Of a DNA stretch of 64,000 bases, positions 2 to 41,759 are shown one piece after another. How positions within the stretch are numbered: position 1 is the first letter of the stretch; each line of letters starts with the position of its first letter. The notes under the pieces are model-generated. The model had not been told where the DNA came from. It worked only from the letters and a program-made list of their open reading frames with translations, and ran no database searches. Source of the DNA: a virus (Duplodnaviria > Heunggongvirae > Uroviricota > Caudoviricetes); the IMG/VR virus record IMGVR_UViG_2654587728_000014, positions 5,853 to 69,852 of that record. One strand, 5' to 3'. The position numbers were made by a program, and so were the translations under genes.

Positions 2-196
2 GGGATCGGTATGTCTTTTGATGCAATCAGAGGGGCTTTTTATGATGCAGGAACACGATCTGCGAGAATGCCGAATAACACAACTGATATAGGCAAAACC
101 GATGACCTTGGATTCGACGCCTCTCGTGTCGTGCCAACAGCTAATGAAAACCGTCCACGTAACATCGCCTTTAATTATATTGTGAGGGCTGCATAA
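2..196 (+). CDS. tail-fibre protein, C-terminal fragment (5' part lies upstream of the window)
   Basis: Frame is open from position 2; ends RPRNIAFNYIVRAA, the same C-terminal signature as the fibres at 38035-39489 and 1714-2220; immediately followed by a tfa gene. Confidence 0.6.
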   Translation, partial: GIGMSFDAIRGAFYDAGTRSARMPNNTTDIGKTDDLGFDASRVVPTANENRPRNIAFNYIVRAA

Positions 197-789
197 TGAA
201 ACCTGTTTTTGATGAAAATGGGCTGGCTACAGTGCCGGGTGATATGCGTTGTTATTATTATGATGCAGTAACGTCTGAATATACGGGCTGGTCTGATGAA
301 TATATTAATACTGGCGTAAGTATGCCCGTTTGTTCCACTGGTATTGACCCGGGCGAATACATTCCGGGAAGAGTGGCAGTATTTACGGGTAAGGGATGGA
401 GCCATGAAGAAGACCATCGCAATGAGACCGTTTACTCAACTGAAAATGGCGCAGCTGTTACAGTGGATTATATCGGTGCCATCAAAGACGGTTATGTCAC
501 GCTTTCACCGTTAACGCCATACGATAAATGGGATGGTGAGAAATGGGTGACGGATACCGAGGCACAGCATAGCGCCGCAGTAGAAGCTGCAGAAGCACAG
601 CGCCAGTCGCTGATTGATGCTGCAATGGCTTCCATCAGTCTGATTCAACTGAAATTACAGGCCGGGCGGAAGCTGACGCAGCCAGAAAACACCCGACTTA
701 ACGCTGTGCTGGATTATATTGACGCGGTGACGGCAACAGATACCAGCACAGCGCCGGACGTCATCTGGCCTGAACTGCCGGAGGCGTAG
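196..789 (+). CDS. tail-fibre assembly chaperone (Tfa / Mu U / P2 G family)
   Basis: 197 aa; conserved ETVYSTENG, KWVTDTE and LNAVLDYID blocks shared with the homologue at 39496-40110; start overlaps upstream fibre stop. Confidence 0.8.
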   Translation: MKPVFDENGLATVPGDMRCYYYDAVTSEYTGWSDEYINTGVSMPVCSTGIDPGEYIPGRVAVFTGKGWSHEEDHRNETVYSTENGAAVTVDYIGAIKDGYVTLSPLTPYDKWDGEKWVTDTEAQHSAAVEAAEAQRQSLIDAAMASISLIQLKLQAGRKLTQPENTRLNAVLDYIDAVTATDTSTAPDVIWPELPEA

Positions 790-1204
790 GCCATTCAATA
801 TCTGGCGCACCGGAAGTATCGACCAGTTCCAGTGCGTCCAGATAATCCAGCCACAAATTATATTGCGCCAGTTCCTCACCTTTCAGGCGACCAATCGCCG
901 CTTTACCAGGCCATTGCTTACTGTATATGTATTCGTTGACCTGATTAATCAATTGCTGCTTTTCCAGTTCGGCTGCAGCAATTTGTTCCTCATGAGTTGG
1001 CGGTGGAATTTCCCCCCAGGTGGGAAGGCCATCATCACCCGCGATGCGTACTTTCCCTTGCAACGTTCTGTCTTCAATAAATTCCAGGTAAGTGTCATAT
1101 GTCACTTCGACAACATCAGCAAGTTCCCATCCGGCCTGTTCATATTTCGCCACATCATTTTTAGCGAAAAAACTATTTTTTGAGGCGCTATAAACCATTT
1201 CCAT
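761..1204 (-). CDS. tail-fibre assembly chaperone, inverted copy (U'-like)
   Basis: 147 aa with LWLDYLDALELVDTSGAPDIEWP tail typical of Tfa C-termini; convergent with and overlapping the 196-789 gene by 29 bp. Confidence 0.75.
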   Translation of the reverse strand: MEMVYSASKNSFFAKNDVAKYEQAGWELADVVEVTYDTYLEFIEDRTLQGKVRIAGDDGLPTWGEIPPPTHEEQIAAAELEKQQLINQVNEYIYSKQWPGKAAIGRLKGEELAQYNLWLDYLDALELVDTSGAPDIEWPTPPAVQAR

Positions 1205-1205
1205 A

Positions 1206-1724
1206 TTAATACCCTACTGCAATATAAAAAACTGATTCACCAGCGTCCTGAGAACCTACCCCCGGAACGCCAGACCAGGTTTTGTTAATGAATGCAAAAC
1301 TGGTATTACTCAGATCAGATGCTCTGTACATCGGGCTGAACATCCAGTAGTTGGCTCCATATGTTTGTCCGAAAACAATGCCATAGCACTGATTTGTAAA
1401 TGGCGTAGAAAATAATTTTCCACCAGTACCAGCGATAGTCCCGAATCGCATCTGGAACCCATTCGGGAAATTAATTCCGCCTGCCGGTGAAGACCAGTAA
1501 GACATATCAGGTATTTGCCCAGCACTATTTCCCACGTTTTTTGTTGCAACGGTTCCTAACCCAAGATTAGCTCTTGCGTCAGATTTATTTGTTAACTCAT
1601 AAAGATTATTTGCCTTTTGAAGTGCTCCTATTATGCGTAAATCATCACCAGCGGCAACGGTTCCGACTGTCGTGCCCACATCCCTTTTCGCCGCTTCTCC
1701 TAAACCAACGTTTCTATGCCGCCC
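1206..1724 (-). CDS. alternative tail-fibre C-terminal cassette (Sv'-like), probably promoterless
   Basis: ORF 1206-1679 stays open upstream to a stop at 1725-1727; the extension encodes NVGLGE across the motif at 1695-1720; Gly/Thr/Asn-rich receptor-binding-like sequence. Confidence 0.5.
   Translation of the reverse strand, partial: GRHRNVGLGEAAKRDVGTTVGTVAAGDDLRIIGALQKANNLYELTNKSDARANLGLGTVATKNVGNSAGQIPDMSYWSSPAGGINFPNGFQMRFGTIAGTGGKLFSTPFTNQCYGIVFGQTYGANYWMFSPMYRASDLSNTSFAFINKTWSGVPGVGSQDAGESVFYIAVGY
1695..1720. other. candidate gix/hix-like crossover site 1
   Basis: TTCTCCTAAACCAACGTTTCTATGCC; half-site TTCTCCTAAACC plus AA core resembles hixL TTCTTGAAAACCAAGG (from memory); encodes the LGLGE junction. 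Confidence 0.35.
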
Positions 1725-2220
1725 TTACGATGTAATTAAACGCAATGTTACGGGGACGAATGGTCACATAATTAACCCCATCGCCTCGCGAAGGACCTGC
1801 AAATGAAAAACGGGAGAATCCAGGTTGGTTGTCAAGGATTTGGTCATAGTTATTGATTGAATGACCAGACCCAATGTCAAAATTACCTGCGTAATGAGAA
1901 AAACTTGTACCATCCTGCCGTGAAAGCAGATCGCGCCCTGTATCCACTTTTCGCCCGTCGTCCCATCCACGGATAAACTCACCGCGCAAATCGGGAAGAC
2001 GGAGGGTCGGGTAGACTCTGGCCAGAACAGGATATTGTTCTTTTGTAAAGGCGCGCCCGTCGCACTTTAACCAGCCTGCTGGCGGTGTGGCAGTGGGCCA
2101 CGGAACAGGTACACCAACGGGCAGCGCCGAGCCTTCCCCCAAACCAACGTTTTCGTTTTTATCCCTACCTATACCAACTCTGTATTTTTCACGAAACAAA
2201 GAGGATGTTTTTTTATGCAA
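1714..2220 (-). CDS. alternative tail-fibre C-terminal cassette 2 (Sv''-like)
   Basis: Encodes NVGLGEGSALPVGVPVPWPTATPPAGWLKCDGRAFTKEQYPVLARVYPTLRLPDLRGEFIRGWDDGRKVDTGR and ends RPRNIAFNYIVRAA; nearly identical over ~200 bp to the H gene at 40425-40625; track start is a TTG so the real unit probably begins at the motif near 2134. Confidence 0.55.
   Translation of the reverse strand: MHKKTSSLFREKYRVGIGRDKNENVGLGEGSALPVGVPVPWPTATPPAGWLKCDGRAFTKEQYPVLARVYPTLRLPDLRGEFIRGWDDGRKVDTGRDLLSRQDGTSFSHYAGNFDIGSGHSINNYDQILDNQPGFSRFSFAGPSRGDGVNYVTIRPRNIAFNYIVRAA
2134..2159. other. candidate gix/hix-like crossover site 2
   Basis: TTCCCCCAAACCAACGTTTTCGTTTT about 55 bp upstream of the invertase start; partial dyad AAACC-AA-CGTTT. 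Confidence 0.4.
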
Positions 2221-3341: not shown

Positions 3342-4757
3342 TCAATCTTTATCGTAAAAACTGCCACGCCCGGCACGGGCGCGCCGTTCCATTTCTGCCC
3401 TGACCATTTCGCCAATCAGTTTCGCCAGTTCGCGGGGATTCTGTGTAACAACGTTATGCAGATGAACATGAATTTCACCGCCAAATCCGGAGGCAACAGG
3501 CTCCCGGTTACGGGAAGTTGCAGGAACTGATGCCACTGGCGATCGTATAGCCTCCGCCACCGGGCGGGAGCTGGCCGCAACAACAGGGACCAGCGCCGGA
3601 GGCAGCGGAGCCGGAACCACGGGTGTGATAGTAATTGCGGGGGCAGGCTTACTGACCTGCGCAATCTTCCGCTCCTGCCACTCCCCACGAACAGCAAGTG
3701 CGCGGGGCAGGTTCTTAAAGACAATATCGCCGGGGCCAATGCGTTTTTTCGTCTCATCAACCAGCTTACCTGTGTTATCAGCAATTTTGCTGAGTCTGCG
3801 TAGCGTACCGGTATTGTTGTCTGTGAGCGGTTTGTTGTCTCTGGGTTTATCGCCTTTTTTGTCGTCGACCTTATCTGACGGGGCCGGGCCGGGAGTCCAT
3901 GGTTTCTGAACCATTTTCTTGAGAACCGGATCCCATTCCCACATTACAGGAGCCTTTGAAGCGTTCTCTATTTTCTTTCTCGCCCGTTCCGCTTCATCCG
4001 GAAGCACTCCGAGCTTTTCAAGTATCCACGCCAGTGAATCCATCAATGCTTTTGTTGGCGTCAGGACAAGCTCTATCGCTCCACCGAGTACCCTGCCGAA
4101 TACCTCGCCAGCACTGGTACATTTATCCAGCGTTTCCTTGCTGGACTCCATCGGTGACAGCAGCGATTTAAACCAGTTAAAGACCTGAATAATCCCATCG
4201 CGCACGACATCAAAAACTGGACCGAACCGTTCAAAGGTTTCGCGCAACGGAGCCAGCCGTTCCATAATCCCACTGAACACCCCTGCATAAAACGCCTTGA
4301 TGGGTTCCCAGTATTTCCAGATGAGAACCGCCGCAGCCACAAACGCAGCAGCAATCAATCCGACCGGGCTGAACAGCGCCCCGATAGCGCCCCCCAGTAA
4401 CGAAACGGAACCCGTCACCATTCCCCATAGTGCTGGCAGGAGCCTGACAGCATTCATTGATCCGGTCAGGAGGGAAAAGCCAAGACGCAGTTTTGCCAGC
4501 GGGCCAGCAAGCACACCAATAGCCAACGACAACGAGCCGACCGTTGCAGTCATCGCCAGCAATGCCCCACCTGCAATCAGTAGCTGGCGCGTCAGTGCCG
4601 GATGGGCCTGCGCCAGCGCCGTCACCTTTGATACCACCCGCGTGAGCCACTGCGTGACAGAACGCAGCGGACCGTCAATCAGATCTGCAATGCGGATGCG
4701 CAACCCTTCCCATGCACTGCCGAGTGATTTCAGATCGCCGTCAAGGTTGTTGGCCAT
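3342..4757 (-). CDS. tail tape-measure protein, C-terminal part only (5'-truncated, likely pseudogene)
   Basis: 471 aa with Gly/Ala-rich TM-like stretches and a C-terminal proline-rich region; about half the length of P2 gpT; frame stays open upstream only to ~4895 where unrelated sequence begins. Confidence 0.6.
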   Translation of the reverse strand: MANNLDGDLKSLGSAWEGLRIRIADLIDGPLRSVTQWLTRVVSKVTALAQAHPALTRQLLIAGGALLAMTATVGSLSLAIGVLAGPLAKLRLGFSLLTGSMNAVRLLPALWGMVTGSVSLLGGAIGALFSPVGLIAAAFVAAAVLIWKYWEPIKAFYAGVFSGIMERLAPLRETFERFGPVFDVVRDGIIQVFNWFKSLLSPMESSKETLDKCTSAGEVFGRVLGGAIELVLTPTKALMDSLAWILEKLGVLPDEAERARKKIENASKAPVMWEWDPVLKKMVQKPWTPGPAPSDKVDDKKGDKPRDNKPLTDNNTGTLRRLSKIADNTGKLVDETKKRIGPGDIVFKNLPRALAVRGEWQERKIAQVSKPAPAITITPVVPAPLPPALVPVVAASSRPVAEAIRSPVASVPATSRNREPVASGFGGEIHVHLHNVVTQNPRELAKLIGEMVRAEMERRARAGRGSFYDKD

Positions 4758-4831
4758 AACCTTTGCTGTGCGTTCAGCCTCACCGCGCGCGCCTTCAAGT
4801 TCTTTTCTCAGTTTGGGTAAGGAGCCGTCAC

Positions 4832-5805: not shown

Positions 5806-6168
5806 TCATCTCCTTTTTTTCAGTCTGTCGGCAACAATGTCGGTTGCAGCTGGCAGGGTGACTGGCCAGAACAACATGACGGCGGTCATGTACAGGATGT
5901 AATGCGCGGTGTCGTAGTGCCTGCCATAGCCCAGGGAACGATGAAGTCTTGCGCTGCATGATCCTGCGTACATATACCAGAAAAGAAAACAGACAATGGT
6001 TTCAGTAGTCATTCTGAATACCTCCCCATTCGATATGAATATTACGGGCAGCAATGACAGGGTCGTTATTCCACCATGCACCTGACATGTATTTTTCAAC
6101 CTGTTCGCGTCCGGCAATAACACCAATTGTGATCCCCGGCCTGACGTTCTTAAAAAAGGCGCGGGCAA
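5806..6168 (-). CDS. small hypothetical membrane protein (probable start near 6012)
   Basis: Hydrophobic segments CFLFWYMYAG and ILYMTAVMLFWPVTL; abuts the GemA-like stop. Confidence 0.3.
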   Translation of the reverse strand: MPAPFLRTSGRGSQLVLLPDANRLKNTCQVHGGITTLSLLPVIFISNGEVFRMTTETIVCFLFWYMYAGSCSARLHRSLGYGRHYDTAHYILYMTAVMLFWPVTLPAATDIVADRLKKRR

Positions 6169-36373: not shown

Positions 36374-37467
36374 CAGAACCCGATTTTATTGAACGCGATG
36401 CCGACAAAATCACGGCAGAAATGATTGCGAAGTATGAAGCGGATACCGGCAAAACGCTGTACCCGGCACAGGCAGAACGTCTGCTGATTGATCTGTGGGC
36501 CTATCGCGAAATGCTGGTCAGGGTTGCGGTACAGGAGGCAGCAAAGCAGAATCTGGTCGCCTTTGCCCGTGAGCCGATGATTGATTACCTCGGTGAACTG
36601 GTCGGTGTATACCGTCTTGCCGCGCAGCCTGCCACTACCACGCTCCAGTTCTCCGTAGATGAGGCACTGGCCATTGATGTGCTGATCCCGGCAGGCACCC
36701 GCGTCAGCGCTTCCGACAGCGTTATTTTTGCCACCGATACAGATGTGGTACTGAAGGCCGGATTGCTGCTGGTCAATGTCACGTCCACCTGTACCGAACC
36801 CGGTACCGCTGGTAACGGCTGGCAACCTGCGCAGGTCAGTCAGTTACTCGATGAGATTGATAACGTCGACCTGCTGGTGAGCAATCTGACGGCCAGTTCC
36901 GGCGGTTCAGAACAGGAAGACGATGACAGGCTCCGGGAGCGTATCAGGCTGGCCCCGGAGTCATTCACCAATGCCGGAAGCCGTGGCGCATACCGCTTTC
37001 ATGCCATGCAGGCCCATCCCAACATTGTCGATGTTGCTGTGCTTTCCCCGGTTCCCGGGACCGTAGATCTGTATCCGCTGCTCAGTACCGGTCTGCCGGA
37101 CGGCGGTGTTCTCACGCTGGTAGAGAGTTTCTGCTCTGATGAGAAAGTCAGGCCACTCACTGATACAGTGCGGGCTAAAACACCAGTGAAGGTGGATTAC
37201 ACCATTGAAGCCAAGATTACGATCTATCGTGATCAGGATGCCAGGTCTGTAAAAGATGCCGCTAACAGCGCCATACAGAACTGGGTGGCATCACGTGCCG
37301 CCACGCTGGGGCGCGATATTGTCCCCAGCCAGATTATCAGTGCATTGTCCGTTTCCGGGGTGTACCAGGTTGAACTGGTGACACCGGCACTGCGGGTGGT
37401 GGCAGAAAACGAATGGGCAAACTGTACGGCAATCACTCTTAACATGACTGGAGTGTCTGATGACTGA
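36364..37467 (+). CDS. baseplate protein J
   Basis: 367 aa. Confidence 0.75.
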   Translation: MALTEPDFIERDADKITAEMIAKYEADTGKTLYPAQAERLLIDLWAYREMLVRVAVQEAAKQNLVAFAREPMIDYLGELVGVYRLAAQPATTTLQFSVDEALAIDVLIPAGTRVSASDSVIFATDTDVVLKAGLLLVNVTSTCTEPGTAGNGWQPAQVSQLLDEIDNVDLLVSNLTASSGGSEQEDDDRLRERIRLAPESFTNAGSRGAYRFHAMQAHPNIVDVAVLSPVPGTVDLYPLLSTGLPDGGVLTLVESFCSDEKVRPLTDTVRAKTPVKVDYTIEAKITIYRDQDARSVKDAANSAIQNWVASRAATLGRDIVPSQIISALSVSGVYQVELVTPALRVVAENEWANCTAITLNMTGVSDD

Positions 37468-38038
37468 GCCATTACAACTCCCGCCACCGCTTGAGGGTGA
37501 TATCAGTCTCAGGACGCTGGGAAGACTGGCAGGACGGCTGGATAACATCGACCTGAGCGTACTGATGGTCTTTCTCGTCGATATCGTCGACAGTTCCGCG
37601 CTGCCATGGCTGGGCGAGCAGTTCTCACTGTCTGGCGATGGCTGGGAGCTGGCGGAATCGGACGATGTTCGCCGCATGCTTATAAAAGCAGCCATCGAAC
37701 TGCACCGGTATAAAGGGACGCCGTGGTCAATCCGGGAAGTTATCCGCCGTTTTGGCTTTGGTGAAGTGGATCTGATTGAAGGCACAGGTCGTCTCAGTTA
37801 CGACGGCAATCGCAGCTATAACGGACTGTTTGTTCATGGAGATGCAGCCGCCTGGGCAGTTTATCGCGTTATTCTGAAACAGCCCATTACTAACGATCAG
37901 GCCGCGATGCTGCGTCAGACGCTCGCTGCATTTGCACCGGCCCGCTGCCATCTGGCCAGCCTGGAGTATCAGTCTGTGGCCATTCGCTATAACAATACCG
38001 CCATCCATGATGGCAGTTATAACCACGGGAGCAGTTGA
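37460..38038 (+). CDS. tail protein I (baseplate, fibre attachment)
   Basis: 192 aa between J and the tail fibre. Confidence 0.65.
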   Translation: MTEPLQLPPPLEGDISLRTLGRLAGRLDNIDLSVLMVFLVDIVDSSALPWLGEQFSLSGDGWELAESDDVRRMLIKAAIELHRYKGTPWSIREVIRRFGFGEVDLIEGTGRLSYDGNRSYNGLFVHGDAAAWAVYRVILKQPITNDQAAMLRQTLAAFAPARCHLASLEYQSVAIRYNNTAIHDGSYNHGSS

Positions 38039-39489
38039 TTATGGGAAACCTGAATGAAACAGAAAAGTGGGAAGAAAATATCTATCAACTGGAGACATCA
38101 GATCCGGTTCTGGGTGGTGCAGACGGGATATCAAATCGAGCCCCCCGGCAACTGGCAAACAGGACGAAATGGCTGAAGAAAAAAACGGAGGAAGCCGCAC
38201 AGTCACTGGCTGAACACGTACGTTCCCGTAACCACCCGGACGCGACACTGACAGCTAAGGGGTTCACCCAACTGAGCAGTGCCACCAACAGCACCTCTGA
38301 AACGCTGGCCGCCACACCAAAGGCCGTCAAGGCTGCATATGACCTGGCTGCCGGCAAGGCCCCCGTCAGCCATACTCACCCGTGGAGTCAGATAACGGGA
38401 GTGCCTGCTGCCTCGCTGACGGCAAAAGGCACCGTACAACTGAGCAGCGCCACGGACAGTCAATCAGAAACTGAGGCTGCCACGCCGAAGGCGGTCAAGG
38501 CTGCATACGACCTTGCAGCCGGCAAGGCGCCCGTCAGCCACACTCACCCGTGGAGTCAGATAACGGGAGTGCCTGCTGCCTCGCTGACGGCAAAAGGCAC
38601 CGTACAACTGAGCAGCGCCACGGACAGTCAATCAGAAACTGAGGCTGCCACGCCGAAGGCGGTCAAGGCTGCATACGACCTTGCAGCCGGCAAGGCGCCC
38701 GTCAGCCACACTCACCCGTGGAGTCAGATAACGGGAGTGCCTGCTGCCTCGCTGACGGCAAAAGGCACCGTACAATTGAGCAGTGCCATCAACAGCACGT
38801 CTGAAATACTGGCCGCCACACCGAAAGCGGTCAAGGCTGCATACGATCTGGCAAACGGAAAACAACCGGCAGATGCCACGCTCACTGCTCTGGCAGGACT
38901 TGCCACTGCAGCAGATCGGTTGCCTTATTTTACCGGAGCAGACCGCGCAGAGCTGGCAACCCTTACAGCTATTGGTCGCGCTATTATCGCTAAGGGCAGT
39001 ATAAAAGATGTCCTCAATTACCTTGGTTTGGGGGAAGGCTCTGCATTGCCTGTTGGTGTACCGGTTCCATGGCCCACCGCCACACCGCCAGCAGGCTGGT
39101 TACAGTGCAACGGAGCTACGTTCACCAAAGAACAATATCCTGTTCTGGCCAGAGTCTACCCGACCCTCCGTCTTCCCGATTTGCGCGGTGAGTTTATCCG
39201 TGGATGGGACGGTGGTCGCAAGGTTGATACCGGGCGTGCGCTACTTTCATTTCAGGAAGGGACTATCGTATCCGGTTTTGATGATAATGATACCGGAGAT
39301 ATCAGTTCGCTCGGCTCTACACAATACGGATTTGGTGACGCTTTAACCTCTAATCAACTGGGGGTCTTAAATGGCAAAAAGTGGATATTTGATGCATCCT
39401 CTAAAGGTGCACAAAGATATGACTGGTGGGCTTATGTATCAGCTCGCCCCCGCAATATCGCATTTAACTATATCGTGAGGGCGGCGTGA
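38035..39489 (+). CDS. tail-fibre protein of the Mu-like prophage
   Basis: 484 aa; three 56-aa shaft repeats; C-terminal NYLGLGEGSALPVGVPVPWPTATPPAGWL...RPRNIAFNYIVRAA shared with the P2-like H gene; no tfa gene follows on this strand. Confidence 0.85.
   Translation: MIMGNLNETEKWEENIYQLETSDPVLGGADGISNRAPRQLANRTKWLKKKTEEAAQSLAEHVRSRNHPDATLTAKGFTQLSSATNSTSETLAATPKAVKAAYDLAAGKAPVSHTHPWSQITGVPAASLTAKGTVQLSSATDSQSETEAATPKAVKAAYDLAAGKAPVSHTHPWSQITGVPAASLTAKGTVQLSSATDSQSETEAATPKAVKAAYDLAAGKAPVSHTHPWSQITGVPAASLTAKGTVQLSSAINSTSEILAATPKAVKAAYDLANGKQPADATLTALAGLATAADRLPYFTGADRAELATLTAIGRAIIAKGSIKDVLNYLGLGEGSALPVGVPVPWPTATPPAGWLQCNGATFTKEQYPVLARVYPTLRLPDLRGEFIRGWDGGRKVDTGRALLSFQEGTIVSGFDDNDTGDISSLGSTQYGFGDALTSNQLGVLNGKKWIFDASSKGAQRYDWWAYVSARPRNIAFNYIVRAA
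38251..38880. repeat. tandem 168-bp coding repeats (~3.7 copies) in the tail-fibre gene
   Basis: Copies at about 38419-38586 and 38587-38754 look identical by eye; flanking copies diverged; each encodes TAKG..QLSSA..S.SET.AATPKAVKAAYDLA..K.PVSHTHPWSQITGVPAASL. Confidence 0.7.
39011..39036. other. gix/hix-like motif in the Mu-like fibre gene
   Basis: TCCTCAATTACCTTGGTTTGGGGGAA; its GGTTTGGGGGAA half is the reverse complement of the TTCCCCCAAACC half at 2134. Confidence 0.3.
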
Positions 39490-39495
39490 TACCGT

Positions 39496-40110
39496 TCAGC
39501 CGGCAAGCGCCAGTGGCGCTTCCGGCCAGCTGATTTCAGGTGCCTTGCTGATATCCAGTGCGTTCAGCTCGTCGATATAATCCAGCACGGCGTTCAGTTT
39601 TGCCGTTTCTTCTGGTTTCAGACTGCGACCAGCACGCAGTTTGAGGTTGATAAGATCGACGGACGCCATCGCCTGTTTCACCCGTTGCTGGCGTTGCTGT
39701 CTGGCAACCTCCAGTTCTGCGGCTCGCTGCCGTTCAGTATCGGTTACCCACGCCTCACCGTTCCAGGTATCCCATGGCGTGGCTGGCTGTTTTGTGGTGG
39801 TGTCCGCCGGGTAATCACCCGGTTGGGTAATCAGAACGGGGTTACCGTTCTCCGTGCTGTATACCGTCTCGCCGCGGTGATCAGGCACATGCTCCCACCC
39901 GTTCAGCGTGGCAGTCCGGCAAACCACGTAACCCGAAATTGCTTCCGGCGGTGCATCGGCGCACGAATGTGCCGGAGTACCCACCCCAAGGGCGAGATAC
40001 TCCACAGAGGATGAGGTGTATTCCCGGGTTTCCTCGTCATAGTGATATACAGTGATATCGCCCGCTACAGTGGCGATACCGTTTTCATCCAGAACTGCAG
40101 TGTTACTCAT
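39496..40110 (-). CDS. tail-fibre assembly protein (P2 G-like)
   Basis: 204 aa homologous to the Tfa at 196-789; start overlaps the H stop. Confidence 0.8.
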   Translation of the reverse strand: MSNTAVLDENGIATVAGDITVYHYDEETREYTSSSVEYLALGVGTPAHSCADAPPEAISGYVVCRTATLNGWEHVPDHRGETVYSTENGNPVLITQPGDYPADTTTKQPATPWDTWNGEAWVTDTERQRAAELEVARQQRQQRVKQAMASVDLINLKLRAGRSLKPEETAKLNAVLDYIDELNALDISKAPEISWPEAPLALAG

Positions 40111-41759
40111 TAAACTGCCCTCACAATGTAATTAAGTGCAATGCTACGGGGTCTGACAGTGATACCCTTCGCATACCCGCTTCTGATAGAGGTCAGAATA
40201 GTAGCCTGCATACCATTGTCTGACATTGCCACGACAGGATCGCTGAATGTTGTCCCGTCCGGCATTTTAAAGCTGCCCTCACGAAGGTCTGTAATGGAAT
40301 CTTCATTGTTGAATCCCATGCCGACTATCCCCGAGGTTCCCGTAGTGTCCTGGTTATAATAATCCAGCATTGCTGTTCTTAACAGCGTTGCCCCTTGTGC
40401 GGACAGCAACTTACGTCCTGTATCAACTTTGCGCCCGTCGTCCCATCCACGGATAAACTCACCGCGTAAATCGGGAAGACGGAGGGTCGGGTAGACTCTG
40501 GCCAGAACAGGATATTGTTCTTTTGTAAAGGCGCGCCCGTCGCACTTTAACCAGCCTGCTGGCGGTGTGGCGGTGGGCCACGGAACAGGCACACCAACGG
40601 GTAGCGCCGAGCCTTCTCCTAAACCAAGGTAATCAAGAACTCCCTGAGTGCTGGTTTTACCAAGAATGGCACGTCCAACACTTGTCAACGCGGTTAACGC
40701 GGCACGATCTGCCCCTGTAAAATATGGGAGTTTATCTGCTGATGTAGCAAGCTCCGCCAGCGCCGTCAGGGTGGCATCCTTCGGTTGCTTACCCGCAAGC
40801 GCGTTAGTCATGGTGGTCGCAAAATTCGGGTCATTGCCCAGCGCTGCAGCCAGTTCGTTCAGCGTGTTCAGTGCATCAGGTGACGAATCTACAAGTGCGG
40901 CAATCGCAGCCATAACGAAAGCCGTGCTTGCGATCTGGGCACTATTAGTCCCCTGTGGCGCTGTTGGTGTTGTTGGCGTTCCGGTCAGTGCCGGGCTGTT
41001 TAATGGTGCTTTCTTGTTCGTTTCATCCATTACCGCCTTAACAGCTTTTGGTGTCGCTGCCAGCGTTTCAGACGTGCTGTTCGTGGCGCTACTGAGCTGA
41101 ACAATCCCTTTTTGTGTAGTGGTGGCGTTCTGGGCGGTATATTTCCCGTTAGCCAGGTCATATGCAGCCTTAACCGCTTTCGGTGTTGCGGCCAGTGTTT
41201 CTGATTCACTGTTAATTGCACTGCTTAACTGAGTAAAACCTTTTACGGTCAGCGAGGCGTCCGGGTGACGTCGTGACTGTTCGTGCTCTGATATTTTATC
41301 ATCCACATATTTGCGGGTTGCCAGAACCACAGACGGGTCGATTTTCAGCGTGATGGCTTCGGTGTTCGTGACAACCAGAATCATGCGGATAGTCTGGGTG
41401 CGTCCACTGCCTTCCTGCAACTGCGGTTTGTACGTTTCCGGGCAGTTTGCCACCGCAATGAGTGCACCTTCATCATCATAAAGACCAATCTCACGGATCC
41501 AGAATCCTCCCTCGTTTTCAGGGATGATTTGCTCCGCAATAATCTGGCTCTGATTGTTAGGGTCAACACTCAGAAGATTCAGCGGTGCAATGCGTTTCTG
41601 GTTAATCAGTTTTGTTTGTGCAGGGTCTGGTGTTGGTAACACACCATTTGCATCACCAACGGCCATTTGCGTCAGATTCAGCTTACTGCCGAGCATCGTC
41701 GCGTTAGCCAGTCGTGCTGCGCCCTGATTAGTCAGAATGGCGTAGTATTTCACTGTCAT
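40110..41759 (-). CDS. tail-fibre protein (P2 H-like)
   Basis: 549 aa; N-terminus MTVKYYAILTNQGAARLA with WIREIGLYDDEGALIAVAN matches the P2 gpH N-domain as remembered; C-terminal region shared with the other fibres. Confidence 0.85.
   Translation of the reverse strand: MTVKYYAILTNQGAARLANATMLGSKLNLTQMAVGDANGVLPTPDPAQTKLINQKRIAPLNLLSVDPNNQSQIIAEQIIPENEGGFWIREIGLYDDEGALIAVANCPETYKPQLQEGSGRTQTIRMILVVTNTEAITLKIDPSVVLATRKYVDDKISEHEQSRRHPDASLTVKGFTQLSSAINSESETLAATPKAVKAAYDLANGKYTAQNATTTQKGIVQLSSATNSTSETLAATPKAVKAVMDETNKKAPLNSPALTGTPTTPTAPQGTNSAQIASTAFVMAAIAALVDSSPDALNTLNELAAALGNDPNFATTMTNALAGKQPKDATLTALAELATSADKLPYFTGADRAALTALTSVGRAILGKTSTQGVLDYLGLGEGSALPVGVPVPWPTATPPAGWLKCDGRAFTKEQYPVLARVYPTLRLPDLRGEFIRGWDDGRKVDTGRKLLSAQGATLLRTAMLDYYNQDTTGTSGIVGMGFNNEDSITDLREGSFKMPDGTTFSDPVVAMSDNGMQATILTSIRSGYAKGITVRPRSIALNYIVRAV
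40614..40639. other. gix/hix-like motif in the H gene
   Basis: TTCTCCTAAACCAAGGTAATCAAGAA; left half identical to site 1 at 1695; inverted relative to the motif at 39011. Confidence 0.3.

Follow-up and report, generated by a model that had tools for sequence, protein, structure and literature searches.

The tail-fibre gene described here lies on the plus strand of a 64,000-nucleotide stretch of tailed-phage (Caudoviricetes) DNA, positions 5,853 to 69,852 of IMG/VR record IMGVR_UViG_2654587728_000014 and hereafter called the window. The window corresponds to positions 6284-70283 of the draft whole-genome shotgun (WGS) contig JHRJ01000008.1 of assembly GCA_001267345.1, on which the exact 482-residue fibre protein is recorded. 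The gene belongs to a BcepMu-like prophage, and its shaft-coding part holds an array of 168-bp units, two of which are adjacent and identical. The mechanically called open reading frame (ORF) begins at TTG 38035, with ATG 38041 as the more likely start codon. The gene and its array, including a tract that bears on a shorter allele described below, are arranged as follows.

38041 to 39489, plus strand: tail-fibre gene of the BcepMu-like prophage, an analogue of Mu S and P2 H, 482 amino acids from the ATG, with Pfam PF03406 four times and Collar (PF07484)

38251 to 38418, plus strand: unit 1, an older copy that has diverged, with 82.7% identity to unit 2

38419 to 38586, plus strand: unit 2a, first of the identical pair, encoding TAKGTVQLSSATDSQSETEAATPKAVKAAYDLAAGKAPVSHTHPWSQITGVPAASL

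38587 to 38754, plus strand: unit 2b, with 168 of 168 bases as in unit 2a

38755 to 38862, plus strand: partial unit 4, consisting of the PF03406 core only and followed by a linker toward an invertase crossover site

38374 to 38775: tract of 402 nt (2.4 units) that is perfectly periodic at 168 bp; it includes the 66-bp sequence at the unit junction, which the shorter allele has as a direct repeat

Direct comparison of 38419-38586 with 38587-38754 found all 168 bases the same, as a preliminary description of this DNA had stated, and at an offset of 168 the longest perfect run covered 234 nt (38374-38607). Tandem Repeats Finder delimited the array at 38269-38853, with a period of 168, 3.5 copies, 91% matches, no indels and a score of 907. 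The period equals 56 codons, and the 3.5 units are in frame in the plus-strand ORF (38035/38041-39489), which agrees with the 56-residue module described earlier. The copies on either side of the pair were likewise diverged, as described: unit 1 differed from unit 2 at 29 of 168 bases, amounting to 18 synonymous and 5 non-synonymous codon changes, and unit 4, of which only the first ~108 nt (38755-38862) are retained, showed 79% identity to unit 2. Because the remaining paralogous units have diverged by 17-39%, identity over 168 nt is not a matter of chance. The whole tract is perfectly periodic, and the duplication junction therefore cannot be placed more finely than 38374-38775. Synonymous changes outnumber non-synonymous ones between units 1 and 2, which indicates that the module, as judged from its older copies, has been under purifying selection, and so it is presumably functional.

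The module had been assigned to a tail-fibre shaft, and its domain content and surroundings were those of such a protein. Pfam PF03406 (Phage_fiber_2) matched the fibre protein four times (243 bits versus a cut-off of 22, E value 1e-73), a Collar tip follows, and the neighbours of the gene are Baseplate_J and Tail_P2_I genes upstream and a Caudo_TAP chaperone gene next to it on the opposite strand. This setting of PF03406 is that of a tailed-phage fibre protein, and close homologues are named tail fibre proteins. Each unit of 56 residues has the sequence TAKGTVQLSSATDSQSETEAATPKAVKAAYDLAAGK and then APVSHTHPWSQITGVPAASL: a PF03406 core of 42 residues and a linker of 14 that contains SHTHPW. 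The SHTHPW stretch (38356-38373, and again in units 2a and 2b) was seen in 56-residue modules only. Since the motifs of homologues are spaced by either 56 or 44 residues and the cores of the P2-type H protein lack SHTHPW, the His-containing linker appears to be an optional insert. It resembles the His-x-His motifs that bind metal in the needles of T4 fibres. A sequence search of solved structures aligned the core to residues ~109-149 of the Mu fibre protein S in 5yvq and 8ju3, and the C-terminal part to the collar/tip of T4 gp37 (2xgf) and of a short tail fibre (9cuy). In this search the motif was matched in Mu S only, and no rise per module was derivable from it. An AlphaFold2 monomer model of the whole fibre, calculated from a 34-sequence alignment, was unusable, with a mean predicted local distance difference test (pLDDT) score of 33.6 and a predicted template modelling (pTM) score of 0.21; the fibre is presumably an obligate trimer.

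The array was then compared with those of related strains, and copy numbers were taken from full-coverage BLAST rows and fetched loci only. BLAST rows without the first 119 query nt were off-register alignments, and locus L005 counts as five motifs, not four. At least 144 complete Escherichia coli genomes matched 37400-40200 in full, and ~620 E. coli genomes have the prophage backbone. The 25 matches listed, many of them of sequence type 131 (ST131), all spanned 2633 bp versus 2801 bp in the window, which is 168 bp less. Between IPCEC31 (locus L001) and the window there were 0 mismatches over 36813-38607 and 1 (at 40628) over 38542-40630. IPCEC31 thus lacks exactly one unit and is otherwise the same over ~3.8 kb (36813-40627), a result that upholds the recent expansion first proposed from the identity of the two units. 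In the shorter allele (L001 20975-21040), a 66-bp perfect direct repeat occurs at an offset of 168; it is made up of the last 45 nt common to units 1 and 2 and the first 21 nt common to units 2 and 4. Of 5,426 complete E. coli genomes, 17, among them IAI39 and L4_E1441, matched the whole of a probe across the unit 2/unit 2 junction (38430-38700) at ≥99%; 547 further records matched it at just 90-95%.

The fetched loci formed a ladder of copy numbers. Three motifs were found in IPCEC31, strain 4/0 and phage PhiKM, four in the window and L4_E1441, five in KUEC74, PEC403, A24 and E-1246, six in MS 21-1, and eight in IAI39, the fibre of which has 686 amino acids. Among 120 database homologues the motif number likewise ranged from 3 to 8, and several of these proteins contained two or three adjacent modules identical in protein (for example, P0008, P0084, P0090 and P0112). 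The preliminary description had called the repeat unstable and able to change fibre length, and had proposed a look at copy number in related strains; the range of 3 to 8 motifs across loci agrees with that view. Array length is thus polymorphic, units having been gained and lost repeatedly, and the window allele is a young member of the series. A literature search on tandem-repeat copy number in fibres found nothing specific.

We consider it probable, at roughly 0.78, that units 2 and 3 of this four-motif shaft array (the identical pair 2a and 2b) originated from a very recent in-frame tandem duplication of one module. The identity of the units, their frame, the domain family, the sister allele with its 66-bp repeat and the copy-number ladder are plain from the sequences and support this reading. 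In the three-motif allele common in ST131, the unit 1/unit 2 and unit 2/unit 4 junctions form 66-bp repeats 168 bp apart, which would mispair through unequal sister-strand exchange or replication slippage and in this way add or remove exactly one unit. Gain or loss of exactly one unit is therefore what such a junction repeat leads one to expect, and slippage or unequal exchange is the mechanism that we infer. We read the change as a gain in the window rather than a loss in the other lineage. A gain would add 56 residues per chain and so lengthen the shaft, and the extra unit may thereby affect fibre length, reach or adsorption; the receptor-binding tip would be unaltered, because it is coded downstream in an invertible segment. 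Two points weigh against this account. The ST131 allele could equally be a deletion derivative. The window, moreover, comes from a draft WGS contig, and its unit number is the number as assembled: short reads cannot span the 402-nt periodic tract, so that the copy number in the source strain rests on the draft assembly.

The draft origin of the contig leads to the alternative that survives best, an assembly artefact in which the strain truly has three motifs, or some other number, and the assembler went round the 168-bp cycle once too often. It would fit such an error that the extra unit is the sole difference from IPCEC31 over ~3.8 kb, and that, of contigs with the exact 482-residue protein, a single one was read, listed with 2 samples. 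Assemblers, however, mostly collapse rather than expand such repeats, and the perfect unit 2/unit 2 tandem stands in 17 independently assembled complete genomes, including IAI39 and L4_E1441, so the allele type is real. Because the same tandem was found in independently finished genomes, we regard an artefact as unlikely, at around one chance in ten. Gene conversion would give the same pair by another route: an older four-motif allele with diverged middle units would have been homogenised, and the three-motif allele would derive from it by deletion. The middle units of loci L004 and L009 are indeed slightly diverged, at 95-99% between neighbours, and neighbouring modules of some homologous proteins are identical at 50-55 of 56 residues, which makes a continuum from identical to diverged copies. 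This explanation nevertheless requires two events where one is enough, and it has to face a three-motif allele that is otherwise the same as the window and carries a 66-bp repeat directly predicting a one-step gain or loss; we consider it improbable. A programmed high-frequency length switch, that is, a contingency locus changing within a culture at rates like those of the neighbouring invertase switch, is highly improbable even though the unit number varies greatly between strains and the array adjoins a true programmed switch, because dedicated machinery is absent, the units are long, and the uniformity of ST131-type genomes (95-99% identity in 596 records, with every full-length ST131-type match in an evenly spaced sample spanning 703 bp) fits rare events, not rapid switching.

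A recent one-module duplication, the reading we prefer, places the new unit next to a site-specific switch whose parts are given below.

39011 to 39036, plus strand: left invertase crossover site of 26 bp, TCCTCAATTACCTTGGTTTGGGGGAA, whose central TT is at 39023-39024; it ends the stable 5' part of the fibre gene

40614 to 40639, minus strand: right crossover site of 26 bp (reverse complement TTCTTGATTACCTTGGTTTAGGAGAA), whose central TT is at 40626-40627

39025 to 40625: invertible segment of ~1.6 kb (Pfam Caudo_TAP, Collar), comprising the collar-type tip of the plus-strand fibre (to 39489), an assembly gene and the tip of the minus-strand fibre (40110 to about 40625)

39496 to 40110, minus strand: tail-fibre assembly gene within the invertible segment

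2215 to 2814, plus strand: Gin/Pin-type serine invertase of a P2-like prophage, 199 amino acids (Pfam Resolvase, HTH_7)

The two ~26-bp sites are inverted, match the family consensus and lie inside the fibre reading frames. The 1.6-kb segment was found in the opposite orientation in L4_E1441 (locus L003, 99.8% identity) and in strain 4/0. Because the array is upstream of the crossover site at 39011-39036, the duplicated unit is in the constant shaft part and not in the exchangeable tip; it belongs to the stable shaft, away from the receptor-binding tip. No invertase gene is adjacent to the segment. One lies 36 kb away (2215-2814), with a crossover-like site at 2122-2148, and the Mu-like prophage's own invertase of 190 amino acids lies just outside the window on the same contig; the 2215-2814 product is 86% identical to the Mu-like prophage invertase. 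It is plausible that the 2215-2814 invertase acts in trans on 39011-39036 and 40614-40639.

The fibres of T4 are known to evolve, among other ways, when a small domain is duplicated in frame. The tandem duplications of gene 37 reported by Tetart and co-workers (1996, J Mol Biol 258:726) reportedly expand host range and lie in the receptor-recognition region. The window is similar to T4 in the in-frame tandem duplication of a small fibre domain through recombination between short conserved sequences, with His motifs marking the units; it differs in that its duplicated unit is in the shaft, upstream of the exchangeable tip, and not in the adhesin. With the Mu gene S, G segment and Gin (and with P1 Cin, e14 Pin and p15B Min) it shares an N-terminal part that stays constant and alternative C-terminal tips, which a serine invertase exchanges through short inverted sites. 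In Mu S, however, one stretch (~109-149) matched the motif here whereas the window fibre has four, and the prophage of the window is BcepMu-like, not Mu itself.

The closest published arrangement is that of the ST131 strain EC958, in which prophages Phi1, Phi2 and Phi4 have stable 5' Phage_fibre_2 (PF03406) repeats and an invertible 3' Collar part with 26-bp sites (Forde et al. 2014, PMC4134206). The published Phi2 sites, TCCTCAATTACCTTGGTTTAGGAGAA and GAGAGATAAACGTTGGTTTGGGGGAA, are close to the window sites at 39011-39036, 40614-40639 and 2122-2148, and the left window site differs at two bases from the Phi2_5prime site (PMC4134206). Two differences were apparent: the ST131-type genomes compared have one unit fewer than the window, and at the far side of the window segment a P2-type H gene stands where EC958 has the invertase gene. 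Lambda Stf, other PF03406 side tail fibres and the collagen-like proteins of enterohaemorrhagic E. coli (EHEC) prophages also have the Phage_fiber_2 motif in variable numbers, and in these proteins segment lengths vary in multiples of the repeat period (PMC3368898); these, however, are siphovirus or podovirus side fibres with other N- and C-terminal domains. The repeat family, its tandem array in the stable fibre part of this prophage family and the invertible tip are thus already published (PMC4134206, PMC3368898). What the window adds is a new allele in a known length series of a fibre repeat, which as ordinary fibre-length variation carries little weight alone, and also a clean natural case in which one unit was gained or lost in a single step and the sequence that can mispair is still present. 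Arrays of this kind are sensitive to assembly, and fibre length is variable in prophages of clinically important E. coli.

RefSeq annotation treats the fibre gene of several genomes as a partial gene, a gene with an internal stop or a pseudogene (L001 20840-21922, L002 14993-16565 and L003 3090-4830). The genes so flagged read as an intact constant part plus a tip, and the flags are probably a side effect of the invertible arrangement. The authors of the EC958 study cautioned about such annotation effects (PMC4134206).

The more notable features of the region are its nested prophages and an invertase-mediated inversion that joined unrelated fibre genes. The further elements concerned are these.

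4832 to 39024, plus strand: main part of the BcepMu-like prophage, running from the TG at its left end as far as the crossover site within the fibre gene

40110 to 41759, minus strand: P2-type H fibre gene, 549 amino acids, with a P2 N-terminal domain, two PF03406 cores and a tip in the shared invertible segment (Pfam PF12571, PF03406 twice, PF07484)

41001 to 41255, minus strand: the two PF03406 cores of the H gene, at 44-residue spacing and without the His linker

11 to 196, plus strand: end of a collar-type tip

196 to 789, plus strand: chaperone gene

761 to 1204, minus strand: chaperone gene

1206 to 1679, minus strand: spare tip

1714 to 2220, minus strand: spare tip

The Mu-like prophage carries a DDE transposase gene (rve) with an AAA+ partner (AAA_22), Gam, GemA and Mor, its TG...CA ends were found, and its relative PhiKM is classed in Bcepmuvirus. 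Its left end interrupts a P2-type tape-measure gene, the C-terminal half of which remains at 3342-4831 on the minus strand (471 codons, 3342-4757). The other half (456 codons; L019 15722-17075) lies on the same contig, just left of the window, in the opposite orientation. When placed on an intact copy, the two halves overlap by 6 bp, GTGACG (1330 + 1490 = 2814 + 6), and this overlap is the target-site duplication of the transposition. A search of the window for the Mu-like right end found none, and that end lies outside it. An independent short-read assembly, a Logan contig from SRR21136863 (36,342 bp), showed the same Mu-in-tape-measure junction. Judged by its length, this contig should end near window position 38,400, where the 168-bp array begins to be met, which would fit a repeat that interrupts assembly from short reads.

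On the other side, the Mu-like homology with other strains ends at the central dinucleotide of the right site (40626-40628), and the sequence beyond is P2-like, the stable part of the H gene having its homologues in P2-like prophages. In intact relatives the native P2-like order is V, W, J, I and H, followed by chaperones and spare tips, the invertase, then on the opposite strand U, T (937 amino acids), E, tube and sheath, and then D and ogr. An inversion between fibre crossover sites predicts that the left flank reads orphan P2 tip, Mu-like invertase, Mu right end and reversed N-terminal half of the tape-measure gene, and the first 6.3 kb of the contig match this order exactly. Judged from gene order and junctions, the history is that a BcepMu-like phage entered the tape-measure gene of a P2-like prophage by transposition, after which ~37 kb inverted between the fibre crossover sites. 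The partners were the P2 H crossover site and the invertase-proximal site of the Mu-like fibre segment, and the inverted block covers about 1-39024. This inversion swapped the fibre tips, so that both fibre genes now converge on a single invertible segment of 1.6 kb. Both prophages were split by it, and neither can now move as a unit.

Two other origins of the convergent fibres, an abutment of two unrelated prophages and a deletion between crossover sites in direct orientation, were rejected, since the native P2-like order and the contig's left end both fitted the inversion prediction. The tape-measure halves, moreover, are opposite in orientation and share the 6-bp duplication. Positions 1-2814 of the window represent the native invertible cluster of the P2-like prophage, and after the inversion the tips of this cluster are without any fibre N-terminal part.

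The exact fusion junction of the window occurs in no complete E. coli genome of the collection. Strain 4/0 (L002/L007, NZ_CP023849.1) has a similar fusion of Mu-like and P2-like fibre genes, with the 1.6-kb segment reversed and the Mu left end abutting ycaL. Because that left end abuts ycaL and not the tape-measure gene, the 4/0 fusion is probably independent, and fusions of this kind probably arose more than once. Invertase crossover sites can thus recombine the fibre genes of unrelated prophages and split both prophages, which bears on prophage decay, on the movement of tips between phage families and on the annotation of convergent-fibre arrangements.

Two invertase genes, both intact, and no fewer than three crossover sites remain on the contig. 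It is possible, although we would call it doubtful, that the array together with flipping 1.6-kb and ~37-kb segments makes up a compound fibre-diversification locus that is still active. If so, two unrelated phages would alternately own the same tips and chaperone, and gain or loss of units would tune the length of one shaft. The past inversion can be read from the junctions described here, whereas ongoing switching and an adaptive shaft length may be further properties of the locus.

The preliminary description had also placed the same module in the P2-type H gene and seen in it inverted homology between the two fibres. This was correct in part: the H gene does contain two PF03406 cores in inverted orientation, at 73-82% DNA identity to the plus-strand array, but they lack the His linker and are spaced by 44 residues. 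The longest exact inverted match between the array and the H cores is 21 nt, whereas in the collar-coding sequence that flanks the crossover sites it reaches 56 nt. With an exact match of just 21 nt, homology between the array and the H cores is unlikely to drive recombination, and the PF03406 repeats were rejected as the recombination substrate between the two fibres. The inverted homology actually used is that of the 26-bp crossover sites and the adjoining collar-coding sequence.

Many public homologues of the fibre protein are named "short-chain fatty acid transporter," and the name "Fe2+ ABC transporter permease protein 2" is given to an opposite-strand ORF that lies immediately downstream of the PhiKM fibre gene. 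Both names look like propagated mis-annotations.

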